The position numbers and the translations under genes are program-made. Below the pieces are notes generated by a model that had not been told where the DNA came from, searched no databases, and saw nothing but the letters and a program-made list of their open reading frames with translations. Below are positions 3,266-20,139 of a DNA stretch of 64,000 bases, in pieces. How positions within the stretch are numbered: position 1 is the first letter of the stretch; each line of letters opens with the position of its first letter. The stretch comes from Treponemataceae bacterium (GTDB taxonomy: Bacteria > Spirochaetota > Spirochaetia > Treponematales > Rectinemataceae), in contig CAXXVZ010000003.1 in the NCBI GenBank assembly GCA_963678065.2, positions 640,001-704,000 on the forward strand, in the 5' to 3' direction.

Positions 3266-4101
3266 CGAAAGGCAAACTCGGTTTTCCTGGAAAAATCGTT
3301 GTTTACGCGATTTTGCTGATCCTGGTATTTTGTGCGGTGTTCCCATTGCTGTGGATGTTCATTTCGTCCTTTAAAACAGAATCCGATTTTACCATAAATC
3401 GGTTCGGACTTCCGAAAATCTGGACTGTCGCCAATTATGTAAACTCATGGGGGCGCGGGCATTTCAGTCTTCTTTTCCGCAACAGTATTATTGTTGCCGC
3501 CTTTTCGTTGGTGTTGATGGTCGGATCGGCCTGTATGACTTCCTTTGCCTTTACACGATACCATTTCAAATTTTCGGGAAAAGTGCTTTTTTATTTTCTA
3601 GTCGGTCAAATGCTTTCAACTCAAACAGTGTTGATTCCTGTGTATTTGGAGCTTATCGTCCTGAAATTGAATAATACCCTGATAGGTTTGGCGTTGGTCT
3701 ATGTCGCCGCAGGGTTGCCCTTTGCGATTTTTCTGTTGCAGGGCTTCTTCATAATACTTCCCCACGAGCTTTATGAAGCGGCCGAGATAGACGGCTGTAC
3801 TGAATTAGGCATTTTTGCGAAAATTGCTTTACCCTTGGCAAAGCCGGGAATCGCTTCCGCTTTGATCATCCAGTTTTTGTTTGTCTGGAACGAATTCCCC
3901 CTGGCTCTTGTCGCCTTGAGTAGCGCAAACGTAATTACATTGCCTGTAGGAATATACCGTGTAGTCAATGATATGTATTCTTCCAGTCATACCTTGGCCT
4001 GCGCAGGACTCGCCATAACTGCCTTGCCAATCATCGCCGTTTACGCTTTTTTCCAGCGGCAAATACTTGAAGGAATTACCGCCGGCGCCATCAAGGGTTA
4101 A
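3262..4101 (+). CDS. Sugar ABC transporter permease (MalG/UgpE-like)
   Basis: ATGA overlap with the previous gene. EAA loop (LPHELYEAAEIDGC), WNEF, and C-terminal GITAGAIKG. Confidence 0.92.
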   Translation: MTKGKLGFPGKIVVYAILLILVFCAVFPLLWMFISSFKTESDFTINRFGLPKIWTVANYVNSWGRGHFSLLFRNSIIVAAFSLVLMVGSACMTSFAFTRYHFKFSGKVLFYFLVGQMLSTQTVLIPVYLELIVLKLNNTLIGLALVYVAAGLPFAIFLLQGFFIILPHELYEAAEIDGCTELGIFAKIALPLAKPGIASALIIQFLFVWNEFPLALVALSSANVITLPVGIYRVVNDMYSSSHTLACAGLAITALPIIAVYAFFQRQILEGITAGAIKG

Positions 4102-4135
4102 CCGCTGAAATGTTTCCGCTTACAAGGAGATCGCG

Positions 4136-6313
4136 ATGGAGGACAGACAAAATTCAGCCTATGTCAATTATAAACAGTACGGATTGCGCTTCGATCTTTC
4201 GAATAACTCCTTTTCCTGTTTTTACGGCTCACGCGGCTGCGTAGTAAAAAATGCAGGCGTTGAGGGAGTATATAAACACGGTAAAAAACTCTTTGATCTT
4301 GGAGATTACAGGAGCAGCAGTTTCAGAATTGAACAGGAGATGGACGCCTCGAAACTTGCGATTCATTTTGAAAATGGCCCGGAGGCGTTATCGGAATTGA
4401 CTTTGATTTTCGGCTTAAGCTCTGCAGGAATTCAACTGCGAATGGATACTCGCGGAGATATCGATTACCACTTCAATGGCTCCCTGCAGTGGGGAAAAGA
4501 TATGGAGCATGATACCTTCGCCGTCAACCTGAACAGAGACGGTCAGGATCTGCGCTGCGCGCTTGGGCCCGCTGCTTCCACTGTCGATAACGCTTTGTTT
4601 GATAGAAACGATGACGCTGCCCTTGAGTTTTTCGGAGCAGCGCCAGTACTCTTGCATTATGATTGGTTGGAAAAAACCTATAAGTTTGCCCTGAGCACAG
4701 TCGGGAACGACATAATTCGCGGCTTTGGCATACGAGTTCAAACCCGTGTATATGAAGGGCGCTTCAATATTCCATATTGTGCCATCAACAAGCAAAATAC
4801 CTTTCCGACACCGCCTGCAGGCTGGATGACCTGGTACGCGGTGCAATTTGACGCCAACGAAAATACCGTATTGGAAAATGCAAGATGGCAGGCTAAAAAC
4901 CTTAAGGATTTTGGAGCCAACACAATCTGGGTGGATTGGGAGTGGTTTCACAGTGATATGTCGGGAGTTGGTTATCCCGATACGGACTCATTTCACCCTG
5001 ATCCCCGGCGTTACCCGAACGGGCTCAAGCACGTGGCAGACGAAATCAAAAAACTTGGATTGATTCCCGCGTTGTGGGTCGGCTTCACGAATGATCCTAC
5101 CGAAAATGAACAAATCAAGAATAATCCCGATATTTTGCTGATTAGAAAACCAACGTGGTGCGGACAGTATTTTCTGGATGCAAGCAATCCCAAGTATCTG
5201 AAGGAATATATCCCCGCCGTCTTCCGGCAGGTGCTGGATTGGGGCTATGAAGCCCTCAAATGGGATTGCCTCCCCAATACGCTCGGTTATCTGGACCAGT
5301 GTCATGACAACATGTTTGATCCCGAAATAACTTCGGAAATGGCCCTTCGACAGGCTATCTCAGAGGCTCGTAAGGTTGTGGGCCCCGATTTTTACATGCT
5401 CTCGTGTTCGGGACGAACTTCCCGCGACATCACCATGGCGGTCGATATTTTCGACGCAGCCCGAATTGGCGGGGATATTTTCCAATGGTCTGAGTTTATC
5501 ACCCAATGTGTCCAACGGGCCATGAAATTCTACGCTTTGCACAATGTCGTGATTTACGATGATCCAGATAATGTCATCCTGCGCGAGAAATTCAACAGCT
5601 TCGATCAGGCACGTTCCAGGCTCTCTTTCGTGTCCCTGTTGGGCTTGCCCCTGACTTTGGGTGATTCCTTGCCGCAACTGCCCGAAGATCGAATCGAGCT
5701 TTTGCGACGCGGATTGCCGGCCGTTGACGCGCACCCCATGGATATCCGCGAGAACGTCCACAATTCCCGTATTGTCAAGGTGAACCTGGCCATAGAACGT
5801 CCCTTCGAACGCTGGAACGTCGTGGATGTGCTCAATCTCCTGGTTGAAGACGTTGATATTTCCCTTGACCTGTACACTGATCTTCATCTGCAAGAAGGCA
5901 AATATCTTGTGTACGATTACTGGAAAGATGCTTTTTTAGGAGAGTTTGACACAGCGATTTCCCTGCGTTTGGGCCCCTGCGCCTCTCGCGTTTTATGTGT
6001 GCGTTCCAAGCTCGATCGTCCGCAAATTCTCAGCACTTCCCGCCATATCACGCAGGGAGCCGTGGACATCCGGAGCATGGACTGGAACGAGAAGACAGGG
6101 ACATTATCCGTAACAAGCGATGTGATCGCCAAAGACCCCTATACCGTTACGCTTCATGTCCCTGAGAATCTGAGGCCCTTCAACGAAGGGAACCAAAGTT
6201 ACTCCCCGGAATACAAGAGCGTTGGGGCTTGTCTGTGGCGGTTTACGCTCAAGCCAAAGCAAACAGGAAGTCTCTCTTGGTCTGTGGCTTTCATGTGTAA
6301 ACATCCGGTCTGA
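4136..6313 (+). CDS. Alpha-galactosidase-like glycoside hydrolase (clan GH-D, GH27/GH36)
   Basis: GWMTWY, IWVDWEW, RYPNGLK, GYEALKWD (nucleophile KxD), ARIGGD and DPD motifs. Confidence 0.8.
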   Translation: MEDRQNSAYVNYKQYGLRFDLSNNSFSCFYGSRGCVVKNAGVEGVYKHGKKLFDLGDYRSSSFRIEQEMDASKLAIHFENGPEALSELTLIFGLSSAGIQLRMDTRGDIDYHFNGSLQWGKDMEHDTFAVNLNRDGQDLRCALGPAASTVDNALFDRNDDAALEFFGAAPVLLHYDWLEKTYKFALSTVGNDIIRGFGIRVQTRVYEGRFNIPYCAINKQNTFPTPPAGWMTWYAVQFDANENTVLENARWQAKNLKDFGANTIWVDWEWFHSDMSGVGYPDTDSFHPDPRRYPNGLKHVADEIKKLGLIPALWVGFTNDPTENEQIKNNPDILLIRKPTWCGQYFLDASNPKYLKEYIPAVFRQVLDWGYEALKWDCLPNTLGYLDQCHDNMFDPEITSEMALRQAISEARKVVGPDFYMLSCSGRTSRDITMAVDIFDAARIGGDIFQWSEFITQCVQRAMKFYALHNVVIYDDPDNVILREKFNSFDQARSRLSFVSLLGLPLTLGDSLPQLPEDRIELLRRGLPAVDAHPMDIRENVHNSRIVKVNLAIERPFERWNVVDVLNLLVEDVDISLDLYTDLHLQEGKYLVYDYWKDAFLGEFDTAISLRLGPCASRVLCVRSKLDRPQILSTSRHITQGAVDIRSMDWNEKTGTLSVTSDVIAKDPYTVTLHVPENLRPFNEGNQSYSPEYKSVGACLWRFTLKPKQTGSLSWSVAFMCKHPV

Positions 6314-6461
6314 ATTGTCCTAGAGATGACAAAAGGACTGCTCGCGATACCAGGAAAAACCTCAAGCGATTAAAGGCTCGGTCAGGCTCAGATTCGGAGA
6401 TGTAGCAACACACTACGTGGGTGATTGGCAGATCAGAAACGATAAAGCGAGGAGTGAACAC

Positions 6462-8207
6462 ATGGGCAAGTATGCTATTGAAATAGAAGCAAACGTTCCG
6501 CAGCATGGCGTCACATTGACATCGGGAATCTTCAAGACCGTATTTGATAACAACATTGCATATCTGAAGAGCTTGTCTCAGGACTCCATACTCTATTGGT
6601 TCAGGAAGAAAACTGGTCGTGACGCCCCCGGCGAACCGTATCGGGGACATTTCGAGGACAATATCAAAGGCCAAACTGCAGGGCTTTTTCTCATGGGCGC
6701 TGCGAACAGCCTGCGGTGGGTCGAAGACCCTGAACTCCGGAATCGGGTAACCCAGATAGTCGATGAGATCGAGCAGACTGCGGAACCTGATGGCTTCAAC
6801 CAGCCGATTCCAAAGAGCGCGTTCGGGACGATCGAATATCCCAATTACGTCCGAGTGTGGATGAATTACGGCCTCCTTGCGGCAAATCTGGTCGGAAACA
6901 GGAAGGCTCTCTCTCTGATGCGGGGGATGCAGACTTGGTTCAACCAGTGCGACGAGCGTGTGATCGCCAAAGATCTCGATCTCGGATACCAGGGAGTGAT
7001 CGCGAACACCACGGTCTACTTCACTGAAGTCGGACTGAAGGACGACATCGACGTCACGGTAGACTACTACCAGGAAAACTGGTGGTTAGCCCAGTTCATC
7101 TGCGGGAATCAGAATGCGGTTCACAAGCACCATCGTCCTCATGGGACCGAACTCGAAGCCATCATCGCATACATGGACCTTTACATCGCAACAGGGAAGC
7201 CGCTTTATCTCAATGCCGTCAACGGCGCATACAAGATGTTCAAGAATCAGTGGCAGCACACAGGCGGTGGCATCGTCGCCATAGAGCACGCAGAACTGGA
7301 GCCAGGTTGTCGATGGATCGATCCCGTGCACAAGTACAATGAATTGTGTTGTTCAGCGCATTGGATCTATTTAAATCAGCGTTACCATCAGTTGTTCCCG
7401 AACGTGGAGGAACATGTTGCGGAAATCGAGAAGTCGCTGTACAACATAGCTGTTGCGAATCAGGCCGGGAACGAACATATCAGGTATCACGCATTCCTTG
7501 ATATTCAGAAGGATGAGAATCGGAAAACCCCGGTCTCCTGCTGCGCCGGGCTTGGAACCAGACTCTACGGTTCCTTGCCGGAATTCCTCTACTCGGTCTG
7601 TGACCTTGGTCTCTATGTGGACATTTATTCCAGTTCCAAATTCGTGTTCGATCATCAGGGGCATCAGGTGAGAGTGAGCACCGAGACAGGGCAGCCACTC
7701 GTGGGTGCCGTGAGTATTCGCCTCGATGTCGATGCTCCTCTGGAAATGGTCCTCAGGCTGAGAATCCCGTCGTGGACTGCCGGGAAGGTGCCGGTTCTTG
7801 TCAATGGACAGGCGATCGCCCTTGGCACTCCCGGAACCTATCTGCCTGTCTCCCGCATGTGGAATCCTGGGGATACCGTTACCTTCGAACTGCCGATGGA
7901 AGTGCGCGCCGTCAGGTACTCTGGCATAGACATTGTCCCAGGAAAGGAACGATATGCCTTCGAGTACGGATCGCTCTTGCTCGCAGTGGTGGGGCCGCTG
8001 AATTTTGGCGGCCGGTACATTCTGATAGAACACGATCCTGCCCATCCCGATTCATGGCTCACGCCGATAGAAGGGAATCCCGGCCATTTTTCGATTCTGG
8101 ATATGCCGAGACATCAGATGATACCGTATTACGAAATCGACACTCAGATGTTTACCTGTTTCCCGGTTTTCGGACAGTATAGTTGTTCCTATGTCCAATT
8201 GATGTGA
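6462..8207 (+). CDS. GH127/GH146-like beta-L-arabinofuranosidase family protein
   Basis: GGAG before ATG 6462. NELCC, EKSLYN, SCC..G and LRLRIPSW motifs; WNPGDTVTFELPM C-terminal domain. Confidence 0.85.
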   Translation: MGKYAIEIEANVPQHGVTLTSGIFKTVFDNNIAYLKSLSQDSILYWFRKKTGRDAPGEPYRGHFEDNIKGQTAGLFLMGAANSLRWVEDPELRNRVTQIVDEIEQTAEPDGFNQPIPKSAFGTIEYPNYVRVWMNYGLLAANLVGNRKALSLMRGMQTWFNQCDERVIAKDLDLGYQGVIANTTVYFTEVGLKDDIDVTVDYYQENWWLAQFICGNQNAVHKHHRPHGTELEAIIAYMDLYIATGKPLYLNAVNGAYKMFKNQWQHTGGGIVAIEHAELEPGCRWIDPVHKYNELCCSAHWIYLNQRYHQLFPNVEEHVAEIEKSLYNIAVANQAGNEHIRYHAFLDIQKDENRKTPVSCCAGLGTRLYGSLPEFLYSVCDLGLYVDIYSSSKFVFDHQGHQVRVSTETGQPLVGAVSIRLDVDAPLEMVLRLRIPSWTAGKVPVLVNGQAIALGTPGTYLPVSRMWNPGDTVTFELPMEVRAVRYSGIDIVPGKERYAFEYGSLLLAVVGPLNFGGRYILIEHDPAHPDSWLTPIEGNPGHFSILDMPRHQMIPYYEIDTQMFTCFPVFGQYSCSYVQLM

Positions 8208-8235
8208 TCTTTGCCCCGTCATGTTTAGGATAGAT

Positions 8236-9279
8236 TCACTGAAATCTTCGCGTAGATGATCGTACGACCAGTCTGGTTGGGATGACCTTTTCAACCGTAT
8301 CGACCGGTTCATTCCGAATGAGCTGGAGTAAAAGCTCGGCGCTCTGGCTTCCCAACCCAATGCTGTTTTGGGCCACCGTCGTCAATGGAGGATTCAATAG
8401 CGAAATAAAGTCAATGTCATCGAAACCGACGAGCGAGTACCGCTCAGGGAAAGCGATGGAACGTTGTTGCAGCAATGAAATCACACCCAGCATCATGATG
8501 TCGCTGAACGTAAAAATCGCCGAGAAGTCTATCTCTTCAAGCAACACAGCCATCATTTCATTGTAAGCGCTGTCTTTGTCAGGACGACAAAGTCGGATCA
8601 ACGCTGGGTCAAATTGCATCCCTGCCTCAGCCAAGGCCCTCTTGTACCCTTCCAGACGTTCCTGGGCACTGGAAATGTACTCTGGAGCATTCAGGAATAG
8701 TATCCGACGATGCCCCAAGCGTAACAGATGACTGACGGCATCGTAGGCCCCTTGCTTGTCGTCACTGATAACGCAGGGCACTTTGTGTCTGGAGAAATGT
8801 CGTCCCAAAAGGACAAAGGGAATACGCTTGGACATAAGAAAAACTATATCCTCGTCCTGAGCCTGAGATGGGGTCAGGATGATCCCCTTGGCATTCTGAT
8901 CAACAAGCAGTTCGACGGCCGCTCGTTCCTGCGCATAATTTTCGTCGGTGTTGAACAACATCATCGTATACCCGGCTTTCCGGATTGTCGTCTGAACTCC
9001 CTTAACGATTTGTCCAAAGAACGGATTTGCACTGTCGGTAGTGATCAAGCCGATGATACCTGAATTGCGCATACTTCGTCGCTGGCCTAGAGGATTGAAT
9101 TTATACCCCAACTCGTTGGCGACGTTGATAATCTCATCCCGTGTACCCTTGCTGATATCGTGCTTGTTGCTCAAAGCTTTGGATACAGAGTTAACGGAGA
9201 CGCCTACACGATCGGCGATGTCACGCATTGTTACGTTACGGTGGGATCTCATAGAGTCATTTTTACTATATTCACTCAA
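8236..9279 (-). CDS. LacI family transcriptional regulator (start may be ATG 9252)
   Basis: HTH TMRDIADRVGVSVNSVSKAL, plus GFDDI, PPLTTV and LVVRSST. Confidence 0.95.
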   Translation of the reverse strand: MSEYSKNDSMRSHRNVTMRDIADRVGVSVNSVSKALSNKHDISKGTRDEIINVANELGYKFNPLGQRRSMRNSGIIGLITTDSANPFFGQIVKGVQTTIRKAGYTMMLFNTDENYAQERAAVELLVDQNAKGIILTPSQAQDEDIVFLMSKRIPFVLLGRHFSRHKVPCVISDDKQGAYDAVSHLLRLGHRRILFLNAPEYISSAQERLEGYKRALAEAGMQFDPALIRLCRPDKDSAYNEMMAVLLEEIDFSAIFTFSDIMMLGVISLLQQRSIAFPERYSLVGFDDIDFISLLNPPLTTVAQNSIGLGSQSAELLLQLIRNEPVDTVEKVIPTRLVVRSSTRRFQ

Positions 9280-9473
9280 TAAATATAAGTAGGTTTACTC
9301 GTTCTGAATGAGGACTGTCGGCGCAGACGATCTGACTGTGATAGAGTGTGTCGCATGAAAGTGGAAGGATCAACATACCGTCCTGCGAAGCCCGACTCGG
9401 CTCGCTCAGGCGCCAGGGTCCGACATCCTACCCACATGGCTGCAATCTGCTGCTATGTAAAGGAAGAGTTGTT

Positions 9474-10127
9474 ATGACTGTCCGGAAAATTGCGGGCTGG
9501 TTTTTCCGTTCGTCCCTCGGCATCATCGGATCGGCGGCTGCGGCGCTGGCGGCGGTCTTTGTGCTCGCATCGGGTATCGGCGTCTTCCCGGCCGCAGGGC
9601 TCGGCTTGGCGATTCTTGCTCTCGCGTTCTTCGTGTCCCTGTCGACGAAAAATGGCCTCCGGTTCCTATTGAACCGCAAGGACGGGGATGAGTCGGAGGC
9701 AGCAGGAAAGCTTCTGGCCGAAGCTGCGGAGGCCCGGAAAAGCATGGCAGCGTTGCGCCTCCCCGATCCAGCACTCTCAAAGGCGCGCGACAGGCTCGTC
9801 CTCGAAGCGGGAAAGTTCCTCGAGGATTCGGAGAGAAGGCTTTCCGACAGAAGAGTTGAGACACAGAGTCTTCCTCTCTATGATCCCGAAGCTATCCAGG
9901 CGATTCTCGACGCGCGCCCGGTTCTGGACGCTGTCCTCCACGAACTCGACGAAACCGCATCGGAACGCCGCTTCGGCGCCGAGGACGCCCACCCGGTCCA
10001 GAATCCGGTGGAGAGGGCAATTGCGGTCCTCGAGGACAAAACGCGTGATATACTCAGAGGCAGGGACCGCGTCCGCGGCCTTCCCGATCTTTCGGTACAG
10101 CTGGAAATAGAAGAGGAGCTGAAATGA
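9474..10127 (+). CDS. Hypothetical membrane protein (two N-terminal TM helices plus helical domain); gene 1 of the radical SAM operon
   Basis: ATG 9474 after AGGAAGAG. Hydrophobic N-terminus. Stop overlaps the next start (ATGA 10124-10127). Confidence 0.7.
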   Translation: MTVRKIAGWFFRSSLGIIGSAAAALAAVFVLASGIGVFPAAGLGLAILALAFFVSLSTKNGLRFLLNRKDGDESEAAGKLLAEAAEARKSMAALRLPDPALSKARDRLVLEAGKFLEDSERRLSDRRVETQSLPLYDPEAIQAILDARPVLDAVLHELDETASERRFGAEDAHPVQNPVERAIAVLEDKTRDILRGRDRVRGLPDLSVQLEIEEELK

Positions 10128-11836
10128 ATACGGAGTGCCTGCGGAAAATCCTTCCGGTCCTGTTCGCGACCTGCGCCCTATTCGCTGCGCAAGGCAGCCT
10201 CGGGGCGCTCGACACTTCACCAGTTTCGAGCGATATCACCATCGTCCTCGATCCGCGACTGGAAGCAACGATCACCCAGAGAGTCGAGTGGAAGGCTTCG
10301 GGCGGAAGCATGCATGGATTCTATTTCCAGGGCGAGCCCTTCGAACCCTCCTTCGATTCTTCCCTCTCGTATGCCGACATTCCGGGGGGGACACGACTCG
10401 GCCTCGACATAAAGAATCTCGGTAACGGGAAATACGACGTTCTCCTCGCAGGCGGCGCGGCCTTCTCGGGCACAGCCTTCTACACGCTCTCCTACAAAGC
10501 CCCGTTCGGGAAAGCCGGCCTCGTCGGCTCGACAAAGTCAGGGGAGGGCAAGGACCTCGTCTACTTCGACTATGGCCCCGTGCTCTGGGATTCCCCCCTG
10601 AAATCGCGCACAGTGCGGCTTGTCCTGCCGAGACGCGTCCAGGGCGGCACACTCTCCACCGAGGAGAAGAAAGCCATCCCCGTCCTGACGGAGGCCTCGG
10701 TCAACGAGGAAAATCGAATCGACTGGTACGGAAGCGCAGGCACGGGCGGATCATGGTGGCTCACCGGCCTCTTCTTCCAGGAAAACCTTCCAGCCCGAAA
10801 GACACAGAGGCTCAGACTCTATTTTCCCGCCGACTATCTCGAAATCCAACCTGAAGCCCTCGCCTCGGCAGGGGCTGGCTCCAAACCGCTCATTGGCGGA
10901 AACGGCGACGGAACCGTTGGGGATAGCACAAGAAGTCCACAAAGCGAAGCAGGGGGACCTCGGATAGTGCGTCCCGGTGATCGCTTCATCCCCGTCGTTC
11001 TTGCGGGCGCCTCGCTCGCGGCGGCCGGACTCTTCCTCTACACCCGTCGACTCAAATCCTTTCGTAAAAAGAAAGAGCTTGCAAAGACGATTTCCTGGGC
11101 CGGAGACGCATGGTCTCCCCCCCGCATCCTCGCCGGCAGCTACCAGATTCCCGGTAAAGTGGCGGAAAAGCTCCATCCGGTCGAGGTCGCCATCCTGATG
11201 GAGCTTCCCATGCCGCGGGTCGTGGCAATCATGCTGGAGGGCCTATCCCGCCAGGGCATCGCCGAAGTCATCAGCAGGGATCCACTGCAGATCAGAATTC
11301 TCGGCACAAAAAAGGCAGAAGCGGGTTTCGAGGAAGATTTCCTCGCGGCCTTCGACTCCGAAGGTCGCGTCCTCTCAGGGCTGCTCGCCGATTTTTTCGA
11401 AAAAACCATCGCAGGGCTCCAGGAGAAGACCTGGGATTGCGATCTGGAGGCCACGAAGGCGTATTACCGCGCCCTCATTTCGGATCTCGAGGAAAAAGAG
11501 CGGGCCACATCCGAAACGGAGCGGGAAAGTTTCATGGAGGGGCGCCGGAGCATCCCCTATTACCACTACTGGATGGGGTATTACATGCTTGGCCGCCACG
11601 ACAGCTACGCGGACATGCGCCTTCCCGATGGTTTCTCGGGCGGATACGGGGCCTTCATGAAGAGCGCCGCCTGTTTCTCGGGATGTTTCGCGGCCCCCGG
11701 TGGAACAGTGGATGCCTGCTACTCGGCCTGCCACAATGCCTGTCATGACGCGTGCCACTCCGCCTGTCATTCCGCCTGCCATTCGGCCTGTCACTCCGCC
11801 TGTCACTCGGCCTGCGTGTCCGGAGGCGGTCATTGA
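10124..11836 (+). CDS. Membrane-anchored protein (DUF2207-like layout) with C-terminal Cys-His repeat; putative radical SAM target
   Basis: Signal peptide, beta-rich ectodomain, TM FIPVVLAGASLAAAGLFLY followed by basic residues, and C-terminus ACYSACHNACHDACHSACHSACHSACHSACHSACVSGGGH. Confidence 0.8.
   Translation: MNTECLRKILPVLFATCALFAAQGSLGALDTSPVSSDITIVLDPRLEATITQRVEWKASGGSMHGFYFQGEPFEPSFDSSLSYADIPGGTRLGLDIKNLGNGKYDVLLAGGAAFSGTAFYTLSYKAPFGKAGLVGSTKSGEGKDLVYFDYGPVLWDSPLKSRTVRLVLPRRVQGGTLSTEEKKAIPVLTEASVNEENRIDWYGSAGTGGSWWLTGLFFQENLPARKTQRLRLYFPADYLEIQPEALASAGAGSKPLIGGNGDGTVGDSTRSPQSEAGGPRIVRPGDRFIPVVLAGASLAAAGLFLYTRRLKSFRKKKELAKTISWAGDAWSPPRILAGSYQIPGKVAEKLHPVEVAILMELPMPRVVAIMLEGLSRQGIAEVISRDPLQIRILGTKKAEAGFEEDFLAAFDSEGRVLSGLLADFFEKTIAGLQEKTWDCDLEATKAYYRALISDLEEKERATSETERESFMEGRRSIPYYHYWMGYYMLGRHDSYADMRLPDGFSGGYGAFMKSAACFSGCFAAPGGTVDACYSACHNACHDACHSACHSACHSACHSACHSACVSGGGH
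11714..11815 (+). repeat. 12-nt in-frame coding repeat, A-C-[Y/H]-x units with 9 Cys
   Basis: Cys codons every 12 nt from 11717 to 11813. The five CHSA units each use a different synonymous codon combination. Confidence 0.95.
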
Positions 11837-13248
11837 AGCTGGGCATGTTCCGCGTGAAAAATCCTGCGGCAAAGGCGGTTTCCTCCAGTGGGCGTGAAGA
11901 AGCGGATACCCTCGACGGACTCGAGGAGTACTACCGATCCATCCGCCCCTGGCTCCTGCCGAGGGAGGAAGACTCCACCCTCATCGTGCCGCCCAATCTC
12001 GTTTTCAAACTCGCGGGTTCAGCCTTCCCCCTCTTCTCCTGGCTCGATCGGGGAGGAAGGCTCCGCGATCTGCCCGGAATGGATTATGAGAAACGGGCCG
12101 ATCTCGAGGCCTTCTTCGGGGAGCTGCGTGCAGCCTACGAAGGCCGGGCTCCAGAGGGCTCGCGCGGATTCGGCAGAACTCCCTATGATTTCTCCTTCAC
12201 GGGCCTTCCCGTCCTTGGCGAACTCGCCCTGACATACCGCTGCAACGAGCGGTGTCGCTTCTGTTACGCCGCTTGCGGCGATGTCGCTTGCGGCGATACC
12301 CCCTCTCATCGCCCGGCCGGAGGAAGCACGGCCCAGAGTCCTGAGCGCGGGGAACTTTCCACGGAAGAGGCGAAGCGCGTCATCGAGATATTCAGGAACG
12401 AGGCCAAGATTCCCTTCTTTTCCTTCACAGGCGGCGAGCCACTTCTGCGCCAGGATCTCGAGGAGCTCGCGGACTATGCCCGAACTCTCGGACTCAGGAC
12501 AAACCTCATCACCAACGGGAGCCTCGCAAGTCCCGAGCGCGCTGCCTCCCTGTGGGCTTCGGGAATCGATACCGCCCAGGTCAGCCTCGAGAGTCCCGAC
12601 CCGGAACTCCACGACAATCTCTGCGGCTGCCGGGGCGCCTGGGAGAGGACAGTGGCCGGCATCAAAGCGCTCAAAGGGGCCGGCATCGCCGTCCAGACCA
12701 ACAGCACCCTCACGGCCCTCAACAGGGAGAGTCTTGCCTGCATGCCTGATTTCCTTGCAGGACTCGGAGTTTCCCGTTTTTCCATGAACCTCTTCATTCC
12801 CTCGGGGCGGGGGATAGACGACGGAGAACTCCTTGTCCGATATGCTGATACGGGAGATTTCGTCGAAGGGATACGAAAGAGGGCGAAGGCGGCCGGCCTC
12901 ACATTTTTCTGGTACAGCCCGACGCCGTACTGCATCTACAATCCTGTCGCGAAAGGGCTCGGCAACAAATCTTGCGCTGCCATGGACGGGCTCATCCATG
13001 TGAACCCCTACGGCGAGATCCTGCCTTGCTCATCCTGGCCCGAGAGCGTCGGAGACATACTCGTCGGGTCCTTCCGCGAAATCTGGTTCTCGGAGCGGGC
13101 GCGGTTTTTCAAACAGAAGCATTTCGCCCCCGTCGCCTGCGAAGGCTGTGGGAGCTTCGTCGCCTGCCAGGGGGCCTGTCCCCTCTATTTCAGAGTACTC
13201 GGAGAAACGGAAATCGAGCATGCCCGGGGAGGATTCCATGGAAAATGA
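11833..13248 (+). CDS. Radical SAM/SPASM-domain maturase with N-terminal PqqD/RRE-like region
   Basis: CNERCRFC (CxxxCxxC), FTGGEPLL, LITNG and QVSLES. SPASM motifs SCAAMDGLIHVNPYGEILPC and CEGCGSFVACQGACP. Likely TTG start 11833 overlapping the upstream TGA with GGAGG at 11822; alternative ATG 11845. Confidence 0.93.
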   Translation: MKLGMFRVKNPAAKAVSSSGREEADTLDGLEEYYRSIRPWLLPREEDSTLIVPPNLVFKLAGSAFPLFSWLDRGGRLRDLPGMDYEKRADLEAFFGELRAAYEGRAPEGSRGFGRTPYDFSFTGLPVLGELALTYRCNERCRFCYAACGDVACGDTPSHRPAGGSTAQSPERGELSTEEAKRVIEIFRNEAKIPFFSFTGGEPLLRQDLEELADYARTLGLRTNLITNGSLASPERAASLWASGIDTAQVSLESPDPELHDNLCGCRGAWERTVAGIKALKGAGIAVQTNSTLTALNRESLACMPDFLAGLGVSRFSMNLFIPSGRGIDDGELLVRYADTGDFVEGIRKRAKAAGLTFFWYSPTPYCIYNPVAKGLGNKSCAAMDGLIHVNPYGEILPCSSWPESVGDILVGSFREIWFSERARFFKQKHFAPVACEGCGSFVACQGACPLYFRVLGETEIEHARGGFHGK

Positions 13249-14149
13249 TTTCAGGTTCTTCAGACTGGACACAGGAGCGAGGCTGGCGCTGGCCGGCTCG
13301 CTCTTCCTCGCCGGAGTGGCTGTCGGAATAGCCTCGGACAACCTCGTCGCCCCGGCCTTCGTCCTGTCCGCTGTGGGCTGGACCCCCCTCATGCTGAAGA
13401 AGATCACGAACAGACCCGACGATCAGGGGCTTGAGGAGTGGAGGGCCGTCTCGATGGCCGAAGTGGATAGGCTCGATGACGCGATGCGCGCGACCACGAA
13501 GACTATGGCCAAGAGCGGCGAAATCCTGATCAAGGTCTTCGGAACCTTCATCCTCGCCCTCATTCTCTTCGCGGCGATGGCGGGCTTCGTCGCGGGGAGG
13601 CGGGACATCGGATTTGTCCTCGCGGAAGCAGGAATATTTCTCGTTCCGGCCCTGCTGTTCGGGAGACTCGTCCTGCACAAGCCGAAGGAAATCGCCTTCA
13701 AAATGCCCTCGTTCCGCGCACTTTTGGGAGAAAGCATCCCCGCGAAAGTCACGGTCACACCGTATATTCGCTTCGACAAGGACTCGAAGGGCGCAGACGT
13801 GCCTGAAGATCTCCGGGTGATGTACGAAACGAAGCGCGGTCCCGCAGATTTTGTCGGCATCCAGGTACAGTGCGCGAAGAACAAGGGTCCAAACGGCGAA
13901 GTGCCTTATCTCTACGCAGTCATTCTGACAAAGGGTCGCTCGGGAGCGACATACCGGCAGGCCTCGAACCTCGAATCTCCGGGTTTCGTCGTGGAGACGG
14001 GCGGCGACGAAGAGTATGGCACCGTCGTCATACGCCAGGCGACTGAGGGTAAAGGCTACCACACGACAACATCCGACTGCGCGAAGCTGGGGCGGCTCTG
14101 TGGTCAGATTGCCGCCAGATTCGCCGCCGACCTTTCCCCCGATGCCTGA
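13238..14149 (+). CDS. Hypothetical membrane protein (about 4 TM plus soluble C-terminal domain); gene 4 of the radical SAM operon
   Basis: GGAGG before ATG 13238, overlapping the radical SAM stop at 13248. Four hydrophobic segments. Confidence 0.75.
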   Translation: MENDFRFFRLDTGARLALAGSLFLAGVAVGIASDNLVAPAFVLSAVGWTPLMLKKITNRPDDQGLEEWRAVSMAEVDRLDDAMRATTKTMAKSGEILIKVFGTFILALILFAAMAGFVAGRRDIGFVLAEAGIFLVPALLFGRLVLHKPKEIAFKMPSFRALLGESIPAKVTVTPYIRFDKDSKGADVPEDLRVMYETKRGPADFVGIQVQCAKNKGPNGEVPYLYAVILTKGRSGATYRQASNLESPGFVVETGGDEEYGTVVIRQATEGKGYHTTTSDCAKLGRLCGQIAARFAADLSPDA

Positions 14150-14186
14150 TTTCCTGTAGTCCTGATTAGGGGGGTGACCGCAGGCC

Positions 14187-15350
14187 TCAAGCCCAGCGGG
14201 AAAGGATCTGCCGGTAGCGCGACGCCACTTCTTCGATGACGTTTTCCCAGGATCTGCAGAGCGTGCGACGTGCCTGGGAGCCGGCTTCGGCGCGGAGTCC
14301 CGCATCGTTCAGAATGTCGATGATGCGCGCGGAGTATGCCTCTGTGTCGTTTTCCGCGAGGAATCCGTTTTCTCCGTCCCTGATCACCTCCGAGGCGGTG
14401 GAACCCTGTATGAGAAGGGCCGGCGTCCGGAAGGCGGCCGCCTCCCTGACCACGAGCGGCGCGTTGTCGTAGAGAGAAGGGAAGAGGAAGAGGTCGCCCC
14501 TGGCGTAGATCTGCTTGAGTATCTCCCTGTCGTAGACGACATCGTGGAAAAGTACCCGTTCCCTTATTCCGAGCTCGGTGCATATCTCCATGAGTCGCTC
14601 TTTCGCGTAGCCCTGACCAACGAATACCATCCGGAAATCGCGGATGGCCGAGGCGACCGCGGGCAGGGACCGGACGAGGAATTCCAGGTTTTTTTCGAGT
14701 ATGTGCTGGCCGACATAAAGTCCCACGGGTATCCCTTCCGGAAGTCCCAAAAGCCGGGCTCCCTTTTCCCGGAAAGGGGCGGGATCCTCCGGGGGAACTA
14801 TGTCGATGCCGTTCTCCACGACATCGTAAGGACCCTTGTACCCGTACAGGCGAAGCGTCTTCGCGACGGCTTCCTGAGGCACCCAGACATGGTCGACATG
14901 GTAATAATAGTCGACAATGCGTTTTATCTGGTCATCGACGATGTATTTGACGGGCATCGCGCGCAGAAGGTCATCCCGGTACTTGGAGTGAAAGGTTGTG
15001 ATGATTGGTATCCCTTTCTCTCTCGCTGTCCGGAGGGCGATGAGCCCCGCGCCGAAGGGCGAGTGGGAATGGACAAGATTGAGATCGCGTTTGCGGAGCA
15101 CGAGCTGAAGATTGAGGTCAAGGTCGGGCAAACCGATGCGGTATGGAGGTCGAACTATCGTCGGCACCGAGAGGAAGCGTATAACGGGGAAGCTCTCGCT
15201 GTCGATTGTGTTGGGAGCCGAGGGAGTGACGACGCAGGCCGGTCCGGATTTTCTGTTGAGCCAGTAGGCGTAATTCCTGACAGTGATAGTGACGCCATCC
15301 ATGATGGGGACATAGCCATCGCAGAACAGTCCGACAGAAATCTCTTTCAT
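14187..15350 (-). CDS. Glycosyltransferase family 4 (diacylglycerol glucosyltransferase-like)
   Basis: DGYVPIMDGV, HSHSPF, TTFHSKY, EKNLEFL and FPSLYDNAPLVVREA motifs. Confidence 0.9.
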   Translation of the reverse strand: MKEISVGLFCDGYVPIMDGVTITVRNYAYWLNRKSGPACVVTPSAPNTIDSESFPVIRFLSVPTIVRPPYRIGLPDLDLNLQLVLRKRDLNLVHSHSPFGAGLIALRTAREKGIPIITTFHSKYRDDLLRAMPVKYIVDDQIKRIVDYYYHVDHVWVPQEAVAKTLRLYGYKGPYDVVENGIDIVPPEDPAPFREKGARLLGLPEGIPVGLYVGQHILEKNLEFLVRSLPAVASAIRDFRMVFVGQGYAKERLMEICTELGIRERVLFHDVVYDREILKQIYARGDLFLFPSLYDNAPLVVREAAAFRTPALLIQGSTASEVIRDGENGFLAENDTEAYSARIIDILNDAGLRAEAGSQARRTLCRSWENVIEEVASRYRQILSRWA

Positions 15351-15485
15351 CTGTTAAGATATAATAAATAAAATGAACAAGGTCAACGGGAGGCCGGAGC
15401 CTGGATGACGCCGGAAGCAGCCTTGCCACGAAGGATCGCTGATGGTATACTCTTTCCCATCAAACTTATTTTCAGAGGTAAATCC

Positions 15486-15656
15486 ATGGCACATAAGATC
15501 ACCGATGCGTGCGTAAACTGCGGAGCTTGCGAGGGCGAGTGCCCCACCGGCGCAATCAGCGAGAAGAACGGCGCTCGCTGGATCGATCCCGGCACCTGCG
15601 TGGACTGCGGCGCCTGTGTTTCCGCCTGCCCCACCGAAGCCATCGTCGCCCCCTGA
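15486..15656 (+). CDS. 2[4Fe-4S] clostridial-type ferredoxin
   Basis: GAGG before ATG 15486. Two CxxCxxCxxxCP motifs in 56 aa. Confidence 0.95.
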   Translation: MAHKITDACVNCGACEGECPTGAISEKNGARWIDPGTCVDCGACVSACPTEAIVAP

Positions 15657-15683
15657 CACACCGTCCCGACAGCGATCCGCTGC

Positions 15684-15716
15684 AAGATCCGGCCCCTTCG
15701 GCCGGGTCTTTTTTTT
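15684..15716 (+). terminator. Rho-independent terminator after ferredoxin
   Basis: AAGATCCGGCC..GGCCGGGTCTT hairpin followed by a T-run. Confidence 0.85.
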
Positions 15717-15796
15717 GTCACAATGACTTCCCATTCGCGTAAATATCGTCACAAGATGAAAATAAGGCCTCAAGCACAAAAAAATCCGAGACAGTA

Positions 15797-15825
15797 TTGA
15801 CAGGGCAGGGAGCCTGACATATTCT
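15797..15825 (+). promoter_or_regulatory. Sigma70-type promoter
   Basis: TTGACA-17 bp-TATTCT, about 30 bp upstream of the deacetylase start. Confidence 0.75.
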
Positions 15826-15856
15826 ATTTATTAGTAGTAAAAGTGGGAGCTCTAAA

Positions 15857-16843
15857 TTGAAAAAAACAATCTTTTCCGGAAAGTTGTCGTTTTTTCTTCT
15901 TGCATCCCTTGCCCTCGTTTCCTGCGGACAATTTTTTTCCGTGCCCGAAACAAAGCCATCCACAGAGGTTGGCACGGGTGAGGACCCTATCGTTCCGGGC
16001 AGCGGCGATCTCGCCTTCGAGAACAGCCTTCTCGAGAGTGATCTTTCGACACCTTCGTATTCCGAAGCTCCGAGGGCTCTCTCAGCTTCCTCCTCCAAGG
16101 TTCTGATCCTTATGTATCACCACCTCATAAACGCAGGTACTCCCGAGGAATACGACAGGACGGTCGCCGATTTCCGCAACGATATGAGCTACCTGCGGAG
16201 CAAGGGAATCGTCGTAATTGACTTTGACGACCTTCTCGCGATTCAGGCAGGAACGATGCTTCCGCCCGCAGAAAGGCTCGCCATCATCAGTTTTGACGAC
16301 GGCTACGCCTCTATGTACAAGTATGCCTTCCCCATACTCAAGGAATTCGCTTACAAGGCTACTTTTTTCCTCATCACTTCCTATGTCGCCAATCCCTCCG
16401 GGAATCTGGACGAATCCGGCAAACCTTACTTCCTCCGCTGGAAGGAAGTGAAGGAAATGTCTGCCTATAGGGATCCCGCGACGGGGAGTCGCCTCTTCAC
16501 CATGGGTTCGCACACTGTCGACCATCCCTTCCTCCAGGACCGGGCCTCGAGCTTTGCGACACGAAATGCATACCTGCAATGGCTCAACAAGGAACTGAAC
16601 CAGTCCAAGGCCGCAATCGAGAGGAATGTGAGTCAAGGCGCCATGTTCCTGGCTCTGCCCTACGGTGACGGGTACGGAAACTCAGACATCATCGCCGCAG
16701 CCAAGCGCTTTAACTACAAAGGTATCCGGACTTCCAAATGGGGATCGTTCAGCCCCGCCGACGTGGATAACTTCAAGCTCAAGAGCCTGCCGATATTGGG
16801 CGACACCGATATCGCCTACGTGGATACAGCGTTCACCTACTGA
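15857..16843 (+). CDS. Polysaccharide deacetylase (CE4/NodB) lipoprotein
   Basis: Lipobox LVSC. LMYHH, ISFDDG, GSHTVDH and ALPYG motifs. Confidence 0.9.
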   Translation: MKKTIFSGKLSFFLLASLALVSCGQFFSVPETKPSTEVGTGEDPIVPGSGDLAFENSLLESDLSTPSYSEAPRALSASSSKVLILMYHHLINAGTPEEYDRTVADFRNDMSYLRSKGIVVIDFDDLLAIQAGTMLPPAERLAIISFDDGYASMYKYAFPILKEFAYKATFFLITSYVANPSGNLDESGKPYFLRWKEVKEMSAYRDPATGSRLFTMGSHTVDHPFLQDRASSFATRNAYLQWLNKELNQSKAAIERNVSQGAMFLALPYGDGYGNSDIIAAAKRFNYKGIRTSKWGSFSPADVDNFKLKSLPILGDTDIAYVDTAFTY

Positions 16844-16872
16844 GAACCCCGCTTTGCGGTGGTGCAAAGACC

Positions 16873-16908
16873 ATGAAAAAACCGAGCCAGAAGGCCCGGT
16901 TTTTTCAT
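16873..16908. terminator. Bidirectional terminator between convergent genes
   Basis: ATGAAAAAACCGAGCC-AGAA-GGCCCGGTTTTTTCAT, with A and T tracts on both sides. Confidence 0.8.
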
Positions 16909-16942
16909 ATCCGTGGGGAATCAGGACAGGCCGGAGAGACGC

Positions 16943-18433
16943 TCACATACCGAGACGGTACGCGACTTCGTTCCAGCGAATCTCCTTGCGCAACTCCTCC
17001 GGATCGGTCTTCGCGTCGATGAGGAGGAATTCGATTCCCGCCATCTCGGCGTAATCCCTGAGCCACTCCGTCTTGACCGCGCGGGAGTATCCGGTGTGGT
17101 GGGCGCCGCCCGCGATAATCCAGGATTCGGCCGCGCGGGCGAGGTCGGGCTTCGGAGCCCAGAGCACGCGGGCCACAGGCAGCTTCGGCATGGATTTTTC
17201 GACAGACAGGGCTTCGACCTCGTTCACGATCATCCTGAACCGGTTGCCCATGTCGATGATGGTGGCATTGAGCGCCTGACCAGGCTCCCCGGCGAAAACG
17301 AGACGCGCGGGGTCCGCCTTGCCGCCGATGCCGAGGGGATGGACCTCGAGCCTGACTTTGCCCGCAGCGATGCTCGGGCAGACTTCGAGCATGTGAGCCC
17401 CGAGAACCGCTTGCTTGCCGGGCTCGAAATGGTAGGTGTAATCTTCCATGAAAGACGTGCCGCCGGGCAGCCCAGCTGCCATGACCTTCATGGTCCTGAC
17501 GAGGGCGGCCGTCTTCCAGTCTCCCTCGCCGCCGAAGCCGTAGCCTTCGGCCATGAGGCGCTGGACGGCGAGGCCCGGGAGCTGGGGAAGCCCATGGAGA
17601 TCCTGGAAAGTGGTGGTGAAAGCGCAGAATCCGCCACCCGCGAGGAAGCCGCGCATGGCGAGCTCGATCCTGGCCTGTTCGCGAACCCGGACCGCGCCAG
17701 CGCCGGAGAGAGCATCGGAGGCGAGTTCGTAGGTCTCGGCATATTCGCGCACGAGGTTGTCCACATCGGATTCGGCGATCGCCGCGGCCGCGCGGACGAG
17801 ATCGCCCACGCCCCAGCCGTTTACGGACCATCCGAACTTGATCTGGGCTTCGACTTTGTCTCCCTCGGTGACCGCGACTTCGCGCATGTTGTCGCCGAAC
17901 CGGGCGACCTTCATCGTCTTTCCTTCAGCGAAGGCCGAGGCGGCGCGCATCCAGCCCGCTATTCTGTCGACGACCGCGCTTTCGCGCCAGAAGCCGACGA
18001 CGACCTTCCGCGGCAGGCGCATTCTCGCCCCTATGAAGCCGTGTTCGCGGTCTCCGTGCGCCGACTGATTGAGGTTCATGAAGTCCATGTCGATGCTGTC
18101 CCAGGGAATGTCGCGGTTGTACTGAGTGTGGAGGTGGCACAGCGGCTTCGCGAGCTCGGAGAATCCGGCGATCCACATCTTGGAGGGACTGAAGGTGTGC
18201 ATCCAGGTGATGATGCCCGCGCAAGCCGGATCGGAGTTGGCCTTCCTTATGAGATCGAGGATGGCGGCCGGACCTGTGAGGACGGACTTCCAGACGAGTC
18301 GACAGGGAAGCCTCAGAGCCAACTCCGCTACAATGGCAGAGGAATGGGCATCGACCTGTCGGAGAGTTTCGTCTCCGTACAGATGCTGGCTTCCAGTCAC
18401 AAACCAGAATTCATTCTTTGAAATGTCGATCAC
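16943..18433 (-). CDS. araA: L-arabinose isomerase
   Basis: [40 protein letters not shown] and GGAHH motifs. Confidence 0.98.
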
Positions 18434-20139
18434 GCTGTCTCCTTCTCGACGAAAGCGCCGAGTGCAAGGTATCTCTTGTATAGTTTGTCGTACAGTTTTA
18501 CCCTGACTGGATCGGGCCTGTAGACTCTCTCCGCTCCCGCGCTCATCGATGCCTGTGCATCGAGCACGGTGGGGTAGAGTCCGGCCGCGGTCGCGGCGAA
18601 CATCGCGGCGCCAAGTGCGCAGGACTGGTCGCTCGAGGTGACAGAGATTTCCATGCCGAGGACATCCGCCGTCGTCTGCATGATGAAGGCGCTCTTTCTC
18701 GCGACGCCGCCGACAGCGGCCACCTTGCTGACTGGAACACCCTCGGAGCTGAGGCGCTCGACTATCGCCCGCGAGCCGAAAGCGGCGGCCTCGACGAGGG
18801 CTCGGTAGACGGCGGGGGCATCGGTGCCGAGGGAAAGTCCCGTGATGGCTCCGGTCAGGCTCTGATCGGCGTCCGGTGTGCGCCGGCCGTTGAGCCAGTC
18901 GAGGGCGAGAACGCCCGACGAGTTCGTCGGGCCTGTAGAGCCGGGCCCGAGGGCGAGGGCAGCCTTCTCCAGTGCGGGGAGGATAGCGTCCTCGAATCCT
19001 GCGGGCACGCCGGCGGCGCCCGGAATGTTGGCGAGAGGCCAGGCGAGGAGCCTCTTGAACCAGGCGAAGATGTCGCCGAAGGCCGACTGCCCGGCCTCGT
19101 AACCGATGAATCCGGGTATGACCGATCCGTCGACCTGTCCGCAGATGCCTGCGACGAGTTTCTCGCCTTCAAAGGCCACTCCCGCGCCAGCCTCTGAAGC
19201 GGCCGCAAGGCGGGGTCCGATGAGGATGTCGCAGGTGCTCGTCCCCATGATTTTGAGGAGGGTACCGGGCGACACATCTCCGCCGACAGCGCCGATGTGC
19301 GCGTCGAAGGCGCCGACCGACACGACGACAGACTCCGGAAGGCCAAGACGGGCGGCCCATTCGGGACAGAGGGTCCCGAAAACCTTGTCCGCCTCGAAGG
19401 TCTCTCTGCCAAGGCTCGGCGCGAGCTCGGCGAGGCGGGGATGAAGGGCGGAAAGAAAGTCCACCGGCGGATAGCCGCCCCAGGACGCGTGCCACATGGC
19501 CTTGTGCCCCGCCGCGCAGCGACTGCGCCTGATGGAGGGAATGTCCGTCACGCCTGCGAGGAGGGCCGGCATCCAGTCGCAGTGCTCTATGATGGTGGAG
19601 GCTGCAAAGGCGACTCCGTGGTTGGTCTCGACGACGCGCAGAGCCTTGGCCCAGAACCATTCCGAGGAATAGATGCCTCCCTCATAGCGGGTATAATCCC
19701 CATCCTCCCAGCTTCGAGCGAGTTCATTGATGCGCTGGGCCTGTGAAAGGCCTGTGTGGTCCTTCCAGAGGATGAACATGGCGTCGGGATCCTCGGCGAA
19801 GCGGGGGGAGAGGGCGAGTGGCACACCGTTCCCGTCCGCGAAACAGGGAGTCGAGCCAGTCGTGTCGATGCACAGAGCTCTGACCTTCTCGGCGGCGCCA
19901 GGACCTGCGGCCGCGAGGGCCCCTCCTACAGCGGCCTCGAGGCTCTCGATGTAATCCAAAGGATGCTGGCGGAAGCGATTGGAGGCGGGGTCGCAGAACA
20001 TGCCGCGCGCCCAGCGGGAATAGGCGCTCACGCCGCTGCCTTTTTCGCTGCCATCCGCCGCGTCGACGACGAGGACCCGGACCGAGTCGGTCCCGTAATC
20101 CACGCCGAGAACATAGTCTCGGTCTTTGGGAATGCTCAT
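18430..20139 (-). CDS. araB: Ribulokinase
   Basis: [32 protein letters not shown] and [10 protein letters not shown] motifs. Coupled to araA. Confidence 0.96.

Follow-up and report, generated by a model that had tools for sequence, protein, structure and literature searches.

Four overlapping genes, here called A to D, lie on the forward strand at positions 9474-14149 of the window, by which we mean the whole 64,000-nucleotide stretch analysed (positions 640,001 to 704,000 of contig CAXXVZ010000003.1, assembly GCA_963678065.2, a Treponemataceae bacterium). Read as open reading frames (ORFs), gene A (9474..10127) encodes a protein of 217 amino acids (aa). Gene B (10124..11836) encodes a 570-aa carrier, a predicted type I membrane protein and remote DUF2207 relative that ends in a Cys-His tail. 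Gene C encodes a radical S-adenosylmethionine (SAM) enzyme with a SPASM domain and a recognition element (RRE) of the kind found in the biosynthesis of peptides that are synthesized ribosomally and then modified post-translationally (RiPPs), and gene D (13238..14149) a 303-aa protein with four transmembrane (TM) helices. A and B share an ATGA (10124-10127) and C and D overlap at 13238-13248. The TTGA overlap of B and C (11833-11836) requires a TTG start for C (11833..13248); an ATG is also present at 11845 (11845..13248). All three overlaps agree with the first-pass annotation of this DNA. In other genomes a start codon falls within a few bases of the B stop in 44 of 55 adjacent B-C pairs (TTG in 20), with 11 more loci left unclassified by the script and 7 further loci divergent.

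The carrier protein and its Cys-His tail

B opens with a predicted signal peptide (approximately residues 1-27, 10124..10204; hydropathy, and helix 3-25 in the structure model). It continues with a beta-sandwich ectodomain (10205..10843; VIA-align, Foldseek and the DUF2207 N-terminal model), a single TM helix at residues 284-310 (10973..11053; averaged hydropathy) and a cytoplasmic domain (11156..11623) for which profile, ESM Atlas and fold give weak leads to DUF2207_C, TIGR04222 and GPP34-like proteins. The 12 residues after the TM helix contain a mean of 3.2 Lys or Arg, versus 0.8 before it, and the C-terminus of B is predicted to be cytoplasmic. The structure model (pLDDT [predicted local distance difference test] 82) comprises a signal helix, a beta-sandwich at 28-240, one TM helix, a cytoplasmic domain and an unresolved tail; confidence in the tail is below 50, so the helix predicted there is not used as evidence.

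The ectodomain aligns with the luminal domain of Ost1/ribophorin I (VIA-align Z 15.2 for 6c26_1, root mean square deviation 2.7 over 179 aligned residues; 15.1 for 6s7o_E) and with the non-catalytic N-domain of M1 aminopeptidases (Z 11-14; ERAP1 14.1). We do not claim a glycosylation role for B: the likeness to ribophorin I is that of a fold common to M1 aminopeptidase N-domains, at 6-11% identity. The DUF2207 N-terminal model PF09972 matches 12 of 50 B homologues at E<0.05 and one long homologue exceeds its cut-off (27.6 versus 24.4); B itself gives no match to this model. The cytoplasmic domain scores 13.7 bits with TIGR04222 (cut-off 43) and 0.88 with DUF2207_C clusters of the ESM Atlas, and weakly resembles GOLPH3 (Z 6.0) and Vps74 (Z 5.5). 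B would be a remote relative of DUF2207 with a ribophorin-I-like ectodomain. Its named homologues are Spirochaetia. One spirochaete family (L205:7623-10355 [-], L206, L207) has carriers of 900-1080 aa with extra ectodomains and a variant tail ending in C-V-S-S-F, and D was not detected in these three loci; in G312, carrier matches lie on two contigs.

The tail of B (11717..11833), its predicted substrate core, contains nine Cys in H-x-A-C repeats and ends in C-V-S-G-G-x-H. In order, it reads C-Y-S-A, C-H-N-A, C-H-D-A, five C-H-S-A and C-V-S-G-G-G-H, in agreement with the (C-[YH]-x-A)8-C pattern originally noted. Among the four Cxxx-periodic strings found in six frames of the 5.27 Mb genome, it is the only one that is a gene-ending repeat. 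The unit proposed at first, C-H-x-A, is better written H-x-A-C: all 56 of 56 cases with a Cys spacing of 6 retain the His at -3 and the Ala at -1. This unit holds in 143 distinct tails of the same kind (His-type tails), in which Ala precedes Cys at 94% of positions and His is commonly replaced only by Tyr (32 of 1103 positions) and Phe (6), mostly in the first repeat. Compared with the window over its last 35 codons, 33 relatives show 567 synonymous and 45 non-synonymous changes in 1155 codons; the tail is preserved at the protein level, under purifying selection, and its synonymous diversity rules out a repeat made by slippage. Directly upstream, the segment P501..Y508-x-x-F511-M512-x-S514..C517-x3-C521 (11624..11689) is conserved and is a candidate leader-like recognition site for C.

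Linkage of tail, carrier and enzyme

Of 61 related genomes, 37 contain B, and C directly follows it in 33 of 39 loci, the remaining six contigs stopping inside B. Among 301 evenly sampled Spirochaetota genomes, 20 have B and 22 have the C clade. C is present in each of the 20 with B, adjacent to it in 19 and separated from it by contig ends in one. Of the two genomes with C only, one has a tail at a contig edge; in the other (G321) a carrier was not detected.

A search of GTDB with a DNA pattern for the tail only returned at least 120 stretches, 80 with readable flanks, and these loci were scanned with profiles of A, B, C and D built without the tail. The records comprise Spirochaetota, Planctomycetota, Myxococcota, Acidobacteriota, Clostridia, Chloroflexi, Gemmatimonadota, WOR-3, Aminicenantes, Desulfobacterales, Gammaproteobacteria, Verrucomicrobia and Thorarchaeota, among others; they include a cultured organism, Desulfobulbus alkaliphilus DSM 24258. 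In 79 of the 80, the tail ends a B homologue (the other tail lies at a contig edge), and 74 contain the C clade. C is missing from six loci: the genome of one also contains a complete locus, and four have C elsewhere (390-654 bits); the sixth is an archaeal contig that starts inside B, with no C found, and its relatives carry C divergently upstream. Tails without the enzyme, which if common would have counted against the original proposal, are rare and mostly at assembly breaks: tail, carrier and one RRE-radical SAM/SPASM clade travel together across phyla, as that proposal had anticipated.

The gene counts in these 80 loci (B 79, C 74, D 63, A 15) indicate a B-C-D core in bacteria with A as an add-on. 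Co-occurrence of the genes stands, with three conserved members in place of the four first described. A has two N-terminal TM helices within residues 13-62 (averaged hydropathy), a helical cytoplasmic part and a weak XpaC-like match (PF10112, E=0.007, 16.8 bits versus a cut-off of 29.8). It is present in 25 of 27 spirochaete loci, and 14 of its 15 GTDB occurrences are spirochaete records; A is an accessory, mostly spirochaete addition. D, a core member of the His-type cassette, has its four TM helices (averaged hydropathy) and a conserved soluble C-terminal domain with the motifs N..V.G..YPY.Y.V and VIRQ.T..GY.T. No Pfam family matched more than two of 33 D members, no PDB sequence match was obtained, and the Atlas gave unnamed clusters only; D was not detected in the Thorarchaeota loci.

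Some loci vary in composition. In Acidobacteriota (L066, L114, L130) the order is carrier, D, enzyme. The enzymes of L072, L075, L084 and L133 (Myxococcales and Proteobacteria records) are nested among spirochaete ones in the tree and some of these loci hold two carrier-D pairs per enzyme, a pattern that likely reflects transfer and duplication. In 15 His-type loci (L093:3917-4306 and 14 more) the gene immediately upstream of the carrier encodes a conserved 130-aa soluble protein without a Pfam or NCBIfam match; in Thorarchaeota it lies between the carrier and the divergent enzyme. In G065 the gene for a seemingly truncated enzyme abuts a run of N, and we do not read it as decay.

The recurrent neighbours of His-type loci include no separate short precursor, peptidase or exporter, as had been noticed in the window; cofactor-pathway genes do not recur near the cassette and no MNIO is among the recurrent neighbours scanned. 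This bears on the idea that B is a very long leader, the modified tail being cut free by a protease encoded elsewhere or produced separately from an internal start. Gene callers do find short ORFs at the tail, the linker before the repeats is of low model confidence, and 33 of the 56 tails scored have Met at position 512, all of which would suit a free peptide. Against it, codon 512 encodes Leu or Ile and is no usual start codon in 19 of the 56, so that a conserved internal start is rejected as a general rule; no peptidase or exporter recurs; and the carrier domains are kept over their full length in homologues. We regard release as quite unlikely. Given the conserved pairing of enzyme and tail, it is likely that C produces no secreted peptide and would crosslink the tail of a whole membrane protein, and the tail is very probably the substrate of C. 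The fusion of a RiPP-like core to a membrane protein, as first proposed, is borne out as genomic linkage; the modification step is inferred. The cassette is real, widespread and outside curated families, and would represent RiPP-like protein modification with a membrane-tethered substrate.

A distant B homologue opens onto a sister family of at least 4595 clusters, and all 120 of its listed members end in a Cys-Ala repeat followed by GGGR. Among 151 genomes (a Chloroflexi-centred sample), 12 have a sister carrier with a related enzyme directly downstream in 12 of 12. Apart from these, a single His-type genome is alone in having the sister enzyme clade; G371 carries both pairs of tail and enzyme. 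Of 15 metagenome loci with a Cys-Ala tail, nine have the enzyme and three have less than 1 kb downstream. The 125 Cys-Ala-type tails contain no aromatic residue, and their residue before Cys is Ala, Gly or Ser in 99% of positions: the position before Cys is the sole one that is small and non-Cys in both tail types. Distances among the carriers are correlated with those among the enzymes (Spearman 0.91 for 82 pairs; 0.78 for the His type alone), and the carrier tree and the enzyme tree each gather the Cys-Ala type in one clade. These trees keep one in three spirochaete pairs and near full-length pairs only, and include no named reference enzymes.

Sister loci also carry genes for a two-TM zinc-ribbon protein, a Cys-less C paralogue and a methyltransferase. 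The paralogue (L234:9702-10841 and similar genes in most Chloroflexi sister loci) has an RRE, lacks CxxxCxxC and the SPASM Cys, and is read as a pseudo-enzyme and possible adaptor. The two-TM protein (L234:5154-5549 and 13 other loci), with its C-terminal zinc ribbon ending in EEPKW, is encoded directly upstream of the Cys-Ala carrier; a protein of this kind also occurs in a likely archaeal locus (L191).

Upstream of the cassette in the window (3262-9279) are genes for a sugar ABC permease, two glycoside-hydrolase-like proteins and a LacI regulator, unrelated to it, in a stretch with a GC content of 0.45-0.53 versus 0.60. Downstream (14187-20139) are a GT4 glycosyltransferase, a small ferredoxin-like ORF, a polysaccharide deacetylase and arabinose isomerase/ribulokinase-like genes, which are not kept beside the cassette in other genomes. 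Promoter and terminator scans gave matches no better than chance level. RNA contigs that one study obtained in three runs of lake metatranscriptomes match parts of B and bridge the B-C junction, leaving 7000-9340 uncovered, and one from a related strain has a 17-base insertion directly behind the end of D (14146-14150); they say nothing on transcription or its level and are not used as support for the cassette. One DNA run, possibly from the source sample, is identical to the window over 7000-12960.

The radical SAM enzyme and its predicted chemistry

C has an N-terminal RRE-like domain (11911..12144; three strands, then helices), a CxxxCxxC motif (C133/C137/C140, 12241..12264; invariant in 41 of 41 sequences) and a SPASM domain from C363 to E456 (12931..13212). 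Its radical SAM domain scores 94.5 bits with PF04055, and the SPASM domain is above cut-off with PF13186 (33 bits) and TIGR04085 (36.8 versus 27). Six SPASM Cys are invariant in 41 of 41 (C377, C395, C432, C435, C441, C445). The SPASM Cys set, first described as complete, is not canonical: it lacks the usual last Cys, and conserved instead are C363 (40/41), which lies upstream, and E456 (36/41). The profile alignment passes through the RRE of SkfB and SuiB and the topology of the model (pLDDT 89) agrees; residues 1-120 alone gave no NCBIfam match. Among PDB entries, both profile (E 9e-38 over residues 24-403, the RRE being covered) and fold give SkfB as the best match of C, followed by SuiB; the profile matches to the cyclophane synthase ChlB (E 1e-9) and the epimerase YydG/EpeE (E 3e-9) are weaker.

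No curated NCBIfam family reaches its cut-off with C. This includes HxsC and ScmE/F, models of two maturase families suggested for comparison by the first-pass annotation; C is far below the cut-offs of these and of the SkfB, StsB (83 versus 625), AlbA, PqqE, MftC, GeoRSP and ACGX maturase models. Its top scores, equally sub-threshold, are with heme-pathway enzymes: AhbD 138 and NirJ2 133 (each versus 500), with another AhbD/NirJ model at 99 versus 515. Such scores would suit a role in which C has a cofactor, lipid or tetrapyrrole as its substrate and is docked or fed by the tail, an array of metal or Fe-S ligands left unmodified; Cys/His arrays can bind metals without modification. Three observations oppose this role: the fused RRE aligned with those of SkfB and SuiB, the lack of recurrent cofactor-pathway genes nearby, and the separate enzyme clade for each tail type, both found in one genome. 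C carries an RRE and its closest solved structure is SkfB, which does not support the clustering with Ahb/NirJ named at first as a refutation; we consider a cofactor role very unlikely.

The active site was compared through six proximity residues as defined by Precord et al. (PMC10288494), placed from the wording of that paper. In C these are Y141-T195-I222-S247-S396-S397 and in the proven sactisynthase StsB Y113, T147, I174, S199, K338 and L339 (Y-T-I-S-K-L); C shares four of six with StsB, three with SkfB, two with PqqE and one with SuiB, a partial likeness to the profile of Group 1 sactisynthases. All 36 His-type rows read Y-T-I/V-S-S/A-S and five sister rows Y-T-x-T-Q-S, while Y-T-I-S is seen in none of nine other radical SAM proteins of the genome and loci. 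The closeness to SkfB, the partly StsB-like active site and the small residue before Cys lead us to choose Cys-to-alpha-carbon thioethers, in an uncertain register. If the tail is the substrate, this chemistry is fairly probable. In the mechanism that we propose, B is inserted with its ribophorin-I-like ectodomain outside and its tail inside, as sequence and predicted topology indicate, and the RRE of C would bind the conserved segment just before the repeats. A 5'-deoxyadenosyl radical would then remove the alpha-hydrogen of a small residue adjoining a Cys, preferably the Ala directly before each Cys (a six-membered ring, like that of enteropeptins), and as a second choice the Ala or Gly at +3. 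That C uses the membrane-tethered tail as a RiPP-like core and installs several such thioethers on it is, taken as a whole, somewhat better than an even bet.

Several observations weigh against this reading. G321 (94% complete) has C (G321:C23:53-1423, L203) and no detected carrier, and may hold an orphan enzyme. In three of the 15 metagenome Cys-Ala loci a methyltransferase gene is next to the tail, with no enzyme on contigs of 4-7 kb, and congruent trees are expected of any neighbours that move together. As AhbD and NirJ2 lead the NCBIfam scores, a place for C among peptide maturases does not follow from family scores alone. Positions 5-6 of the active-site profile are unlike StsB, in a comparison where all six were placed from the text and not the figure of the source paper. 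C363 could occupy the fourth site of the first auxiliary cluster, a site that is closed in SuiB and anSME. Thioether synthases are thought to leave it open for a substrate Cys, as described for CrpC (PMC13692751).

The H-x-A of the His-type unit, moreover, fits the aromatic-X-X motif of triceptides. C might form a three-residue His-to-Ala(beta) cyclophane on each H-x-A, with Cys left free as metal ligands, much as HaaB is described to link His1-C2 to Ala3-beta (PMC11499958). The substitution of His mainly by Tyr and Phe and a cluster closed by C363 would also suit cyclophanes. They are opposed by the sister tail, which has no aromatic residue and yet a homologous enzyme, by the distance of ChlB behind SkfB, and by the restriction of Tyr and Phe mostly to the first repeat; this chemistry is unlikely.

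Alternatively, C may change the backbone of the tail without a crosslink, by epimerising Ala or Cys or through some other change, mass-silent or oxidative; the tail would then have free thiols and a special conformation. Alternating D/L geometry is known from polytheonamide-type peptides, and the alternating Cys-Ala of the sister tail would suit it. C also sits in an enzyme neighbourhood that the 2023 paper calls polyfunctional in its accessible part (PMC10288494). The low score with YydG/EpeE and the partly sactisynthase-like active-site profile count against such a change, which we likewise think improbable.

If thioethers are formed, a rigid, His-lined tail might be the cytoplasmic metal- or partner-binding output of a B-D membrane complex tied to envelope or metal stress, a role that we think rather less likely than not. 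Seen most broadly, the cassette may be an ancient system of many bacterial phyla and Asgard archaea in which the cytoplasmic tail of an intact ribophorin-I-like membrane protein receives a thioether ladder from a radical SAM enzyme and serves, permanently tethered, in signalling or metal binding; the His-x-Ala-Cys and Cys-Ala tails would be two interchangeable chemistries, with a separate enzyme for each. We place this wider picture slightly short of an even chance.

Relation to known systems

A literature search, in which subscription journals were mostly outside coverage, found no paper describing the cassette. The first-pass annotation called the system undescribed, and this holds for the cassette and not for all of its tails, four of which are already tabulated as short uncharacterized peptides. 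The supplement of Precord et al. 2023, as far as available, lists three Cys-Ala tails (sequence similarity network group 40) and one His-type tail (a singleton) as 'Other Uncharacterized' precursors of 65-175 aa paired with RRE-rSAM accessions, and RODEO scored four such tails as sacti/ranthi-type precursors (PMC10288494). Except for its first residue, the singleton is the last 65 residues of the 921-aa carrier ORF in L206; the method dropped genes longer than 600 bp as false positives, and the fusion to a carrier was not recognised (PMC10288494). Because precursor-mining pipelines discard long genes, this widespread family has escaped notice or been mistaken for short peptides.

DUF2207 proteins (PF09972, PF20990) share with B the signal peptide, ectodomain, TM helix and a related cytoplasmic domain; the available portion of the DUF2207 literature reports no Cys tail or radical SAM partner, and describes a Streptococcus mutans knockout as sensitive to acid and peroxide (PMC10457818). 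If our proposal is correct, a DUF2207-like family with members as far afield as Asgard archaea would become open to biochemistry for the first time. TIGR04222 membrane proteins with Cys-rich C-termini are proposed MNIO substrates in the accessible text of PMC12452194; like B they are membrane proteins with a Cys-rich tail as proposed RiPP-type substrate, and they are weakly similar to the cytoplasmic domain of B. They differ from B/C in the enzyme class, in a loose linkage, as a third of genomes are without MNIO, and in tails that are variable and predicted to be periplasmic.

The CXXX-repeat targets TIGR04117, TIGR04118 and TIGR04114, a family already named for comparison, resemble the B tail in having Cys at every fourth residue beside a radical SAM enzyme, and differ from it as free peptides of approximately 100 aa. 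The B tail falls below the cut-offs of these models (14.8 and 20.9 versus 50, TIGR04117/TIGR04118 included; 11.2 versus 35), and a TIGR04115-type maturase is not among the top matches of C. Triceptides (3-CyFE) share the aromatic-X-X motif with the His-type tail as H-x-A, a motif absent from the sister tail.

The sactisynthases SkfB, StsB and AlbA resemble C in their RRE-rSAM-SPASM architecture and in a substrate with Cys and small residues, and adjacent-residue sactionines, in which Cys is linked to the preceding residue, are described for enteropeptins in the accessible part of PMC12395415. In contrast to these systems, C scores far below their cut-offs, it has as predicted substrate a repeat core, not a hairpin, at the end of a membrane protein of 500-1000 aa, and the cassette is without an exporter, a peptidase or a short leader-core precursor gene, 79 of 80 tails ending a large carrier.

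QhpD and CrpC install thioethers on whole proteins, according to the available part of PMC13692751, whose supplements contain none of the tail strings. The same source describes CrpA of Methanococcus voltae as a 29 kDa protein with C-x-x-Q/D motifs, ranthionine links and no membrane carrier. TIGR04463, the CrpC/CrpA model, is absent among the best 25 NCBIfam matches of C. Whole proteins with tested radical SAM thioethers are few (QhpC, CrpA), and we found no integral membrane protein among them. The substrate predicted here is short, invariant and easily expressed as a fusion, which makes the claim directly testable, and an enzyme working along a repeat on a large protein could, if confirmed, serve to staple protein tags. 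In its overall plan, an RRE-rSAM/SPASM enzyme predicted to form thioethers on a whole protein with C-terminal Cys repeats, the cassette is like CrpC/CrpA and QhpD/QhpC.

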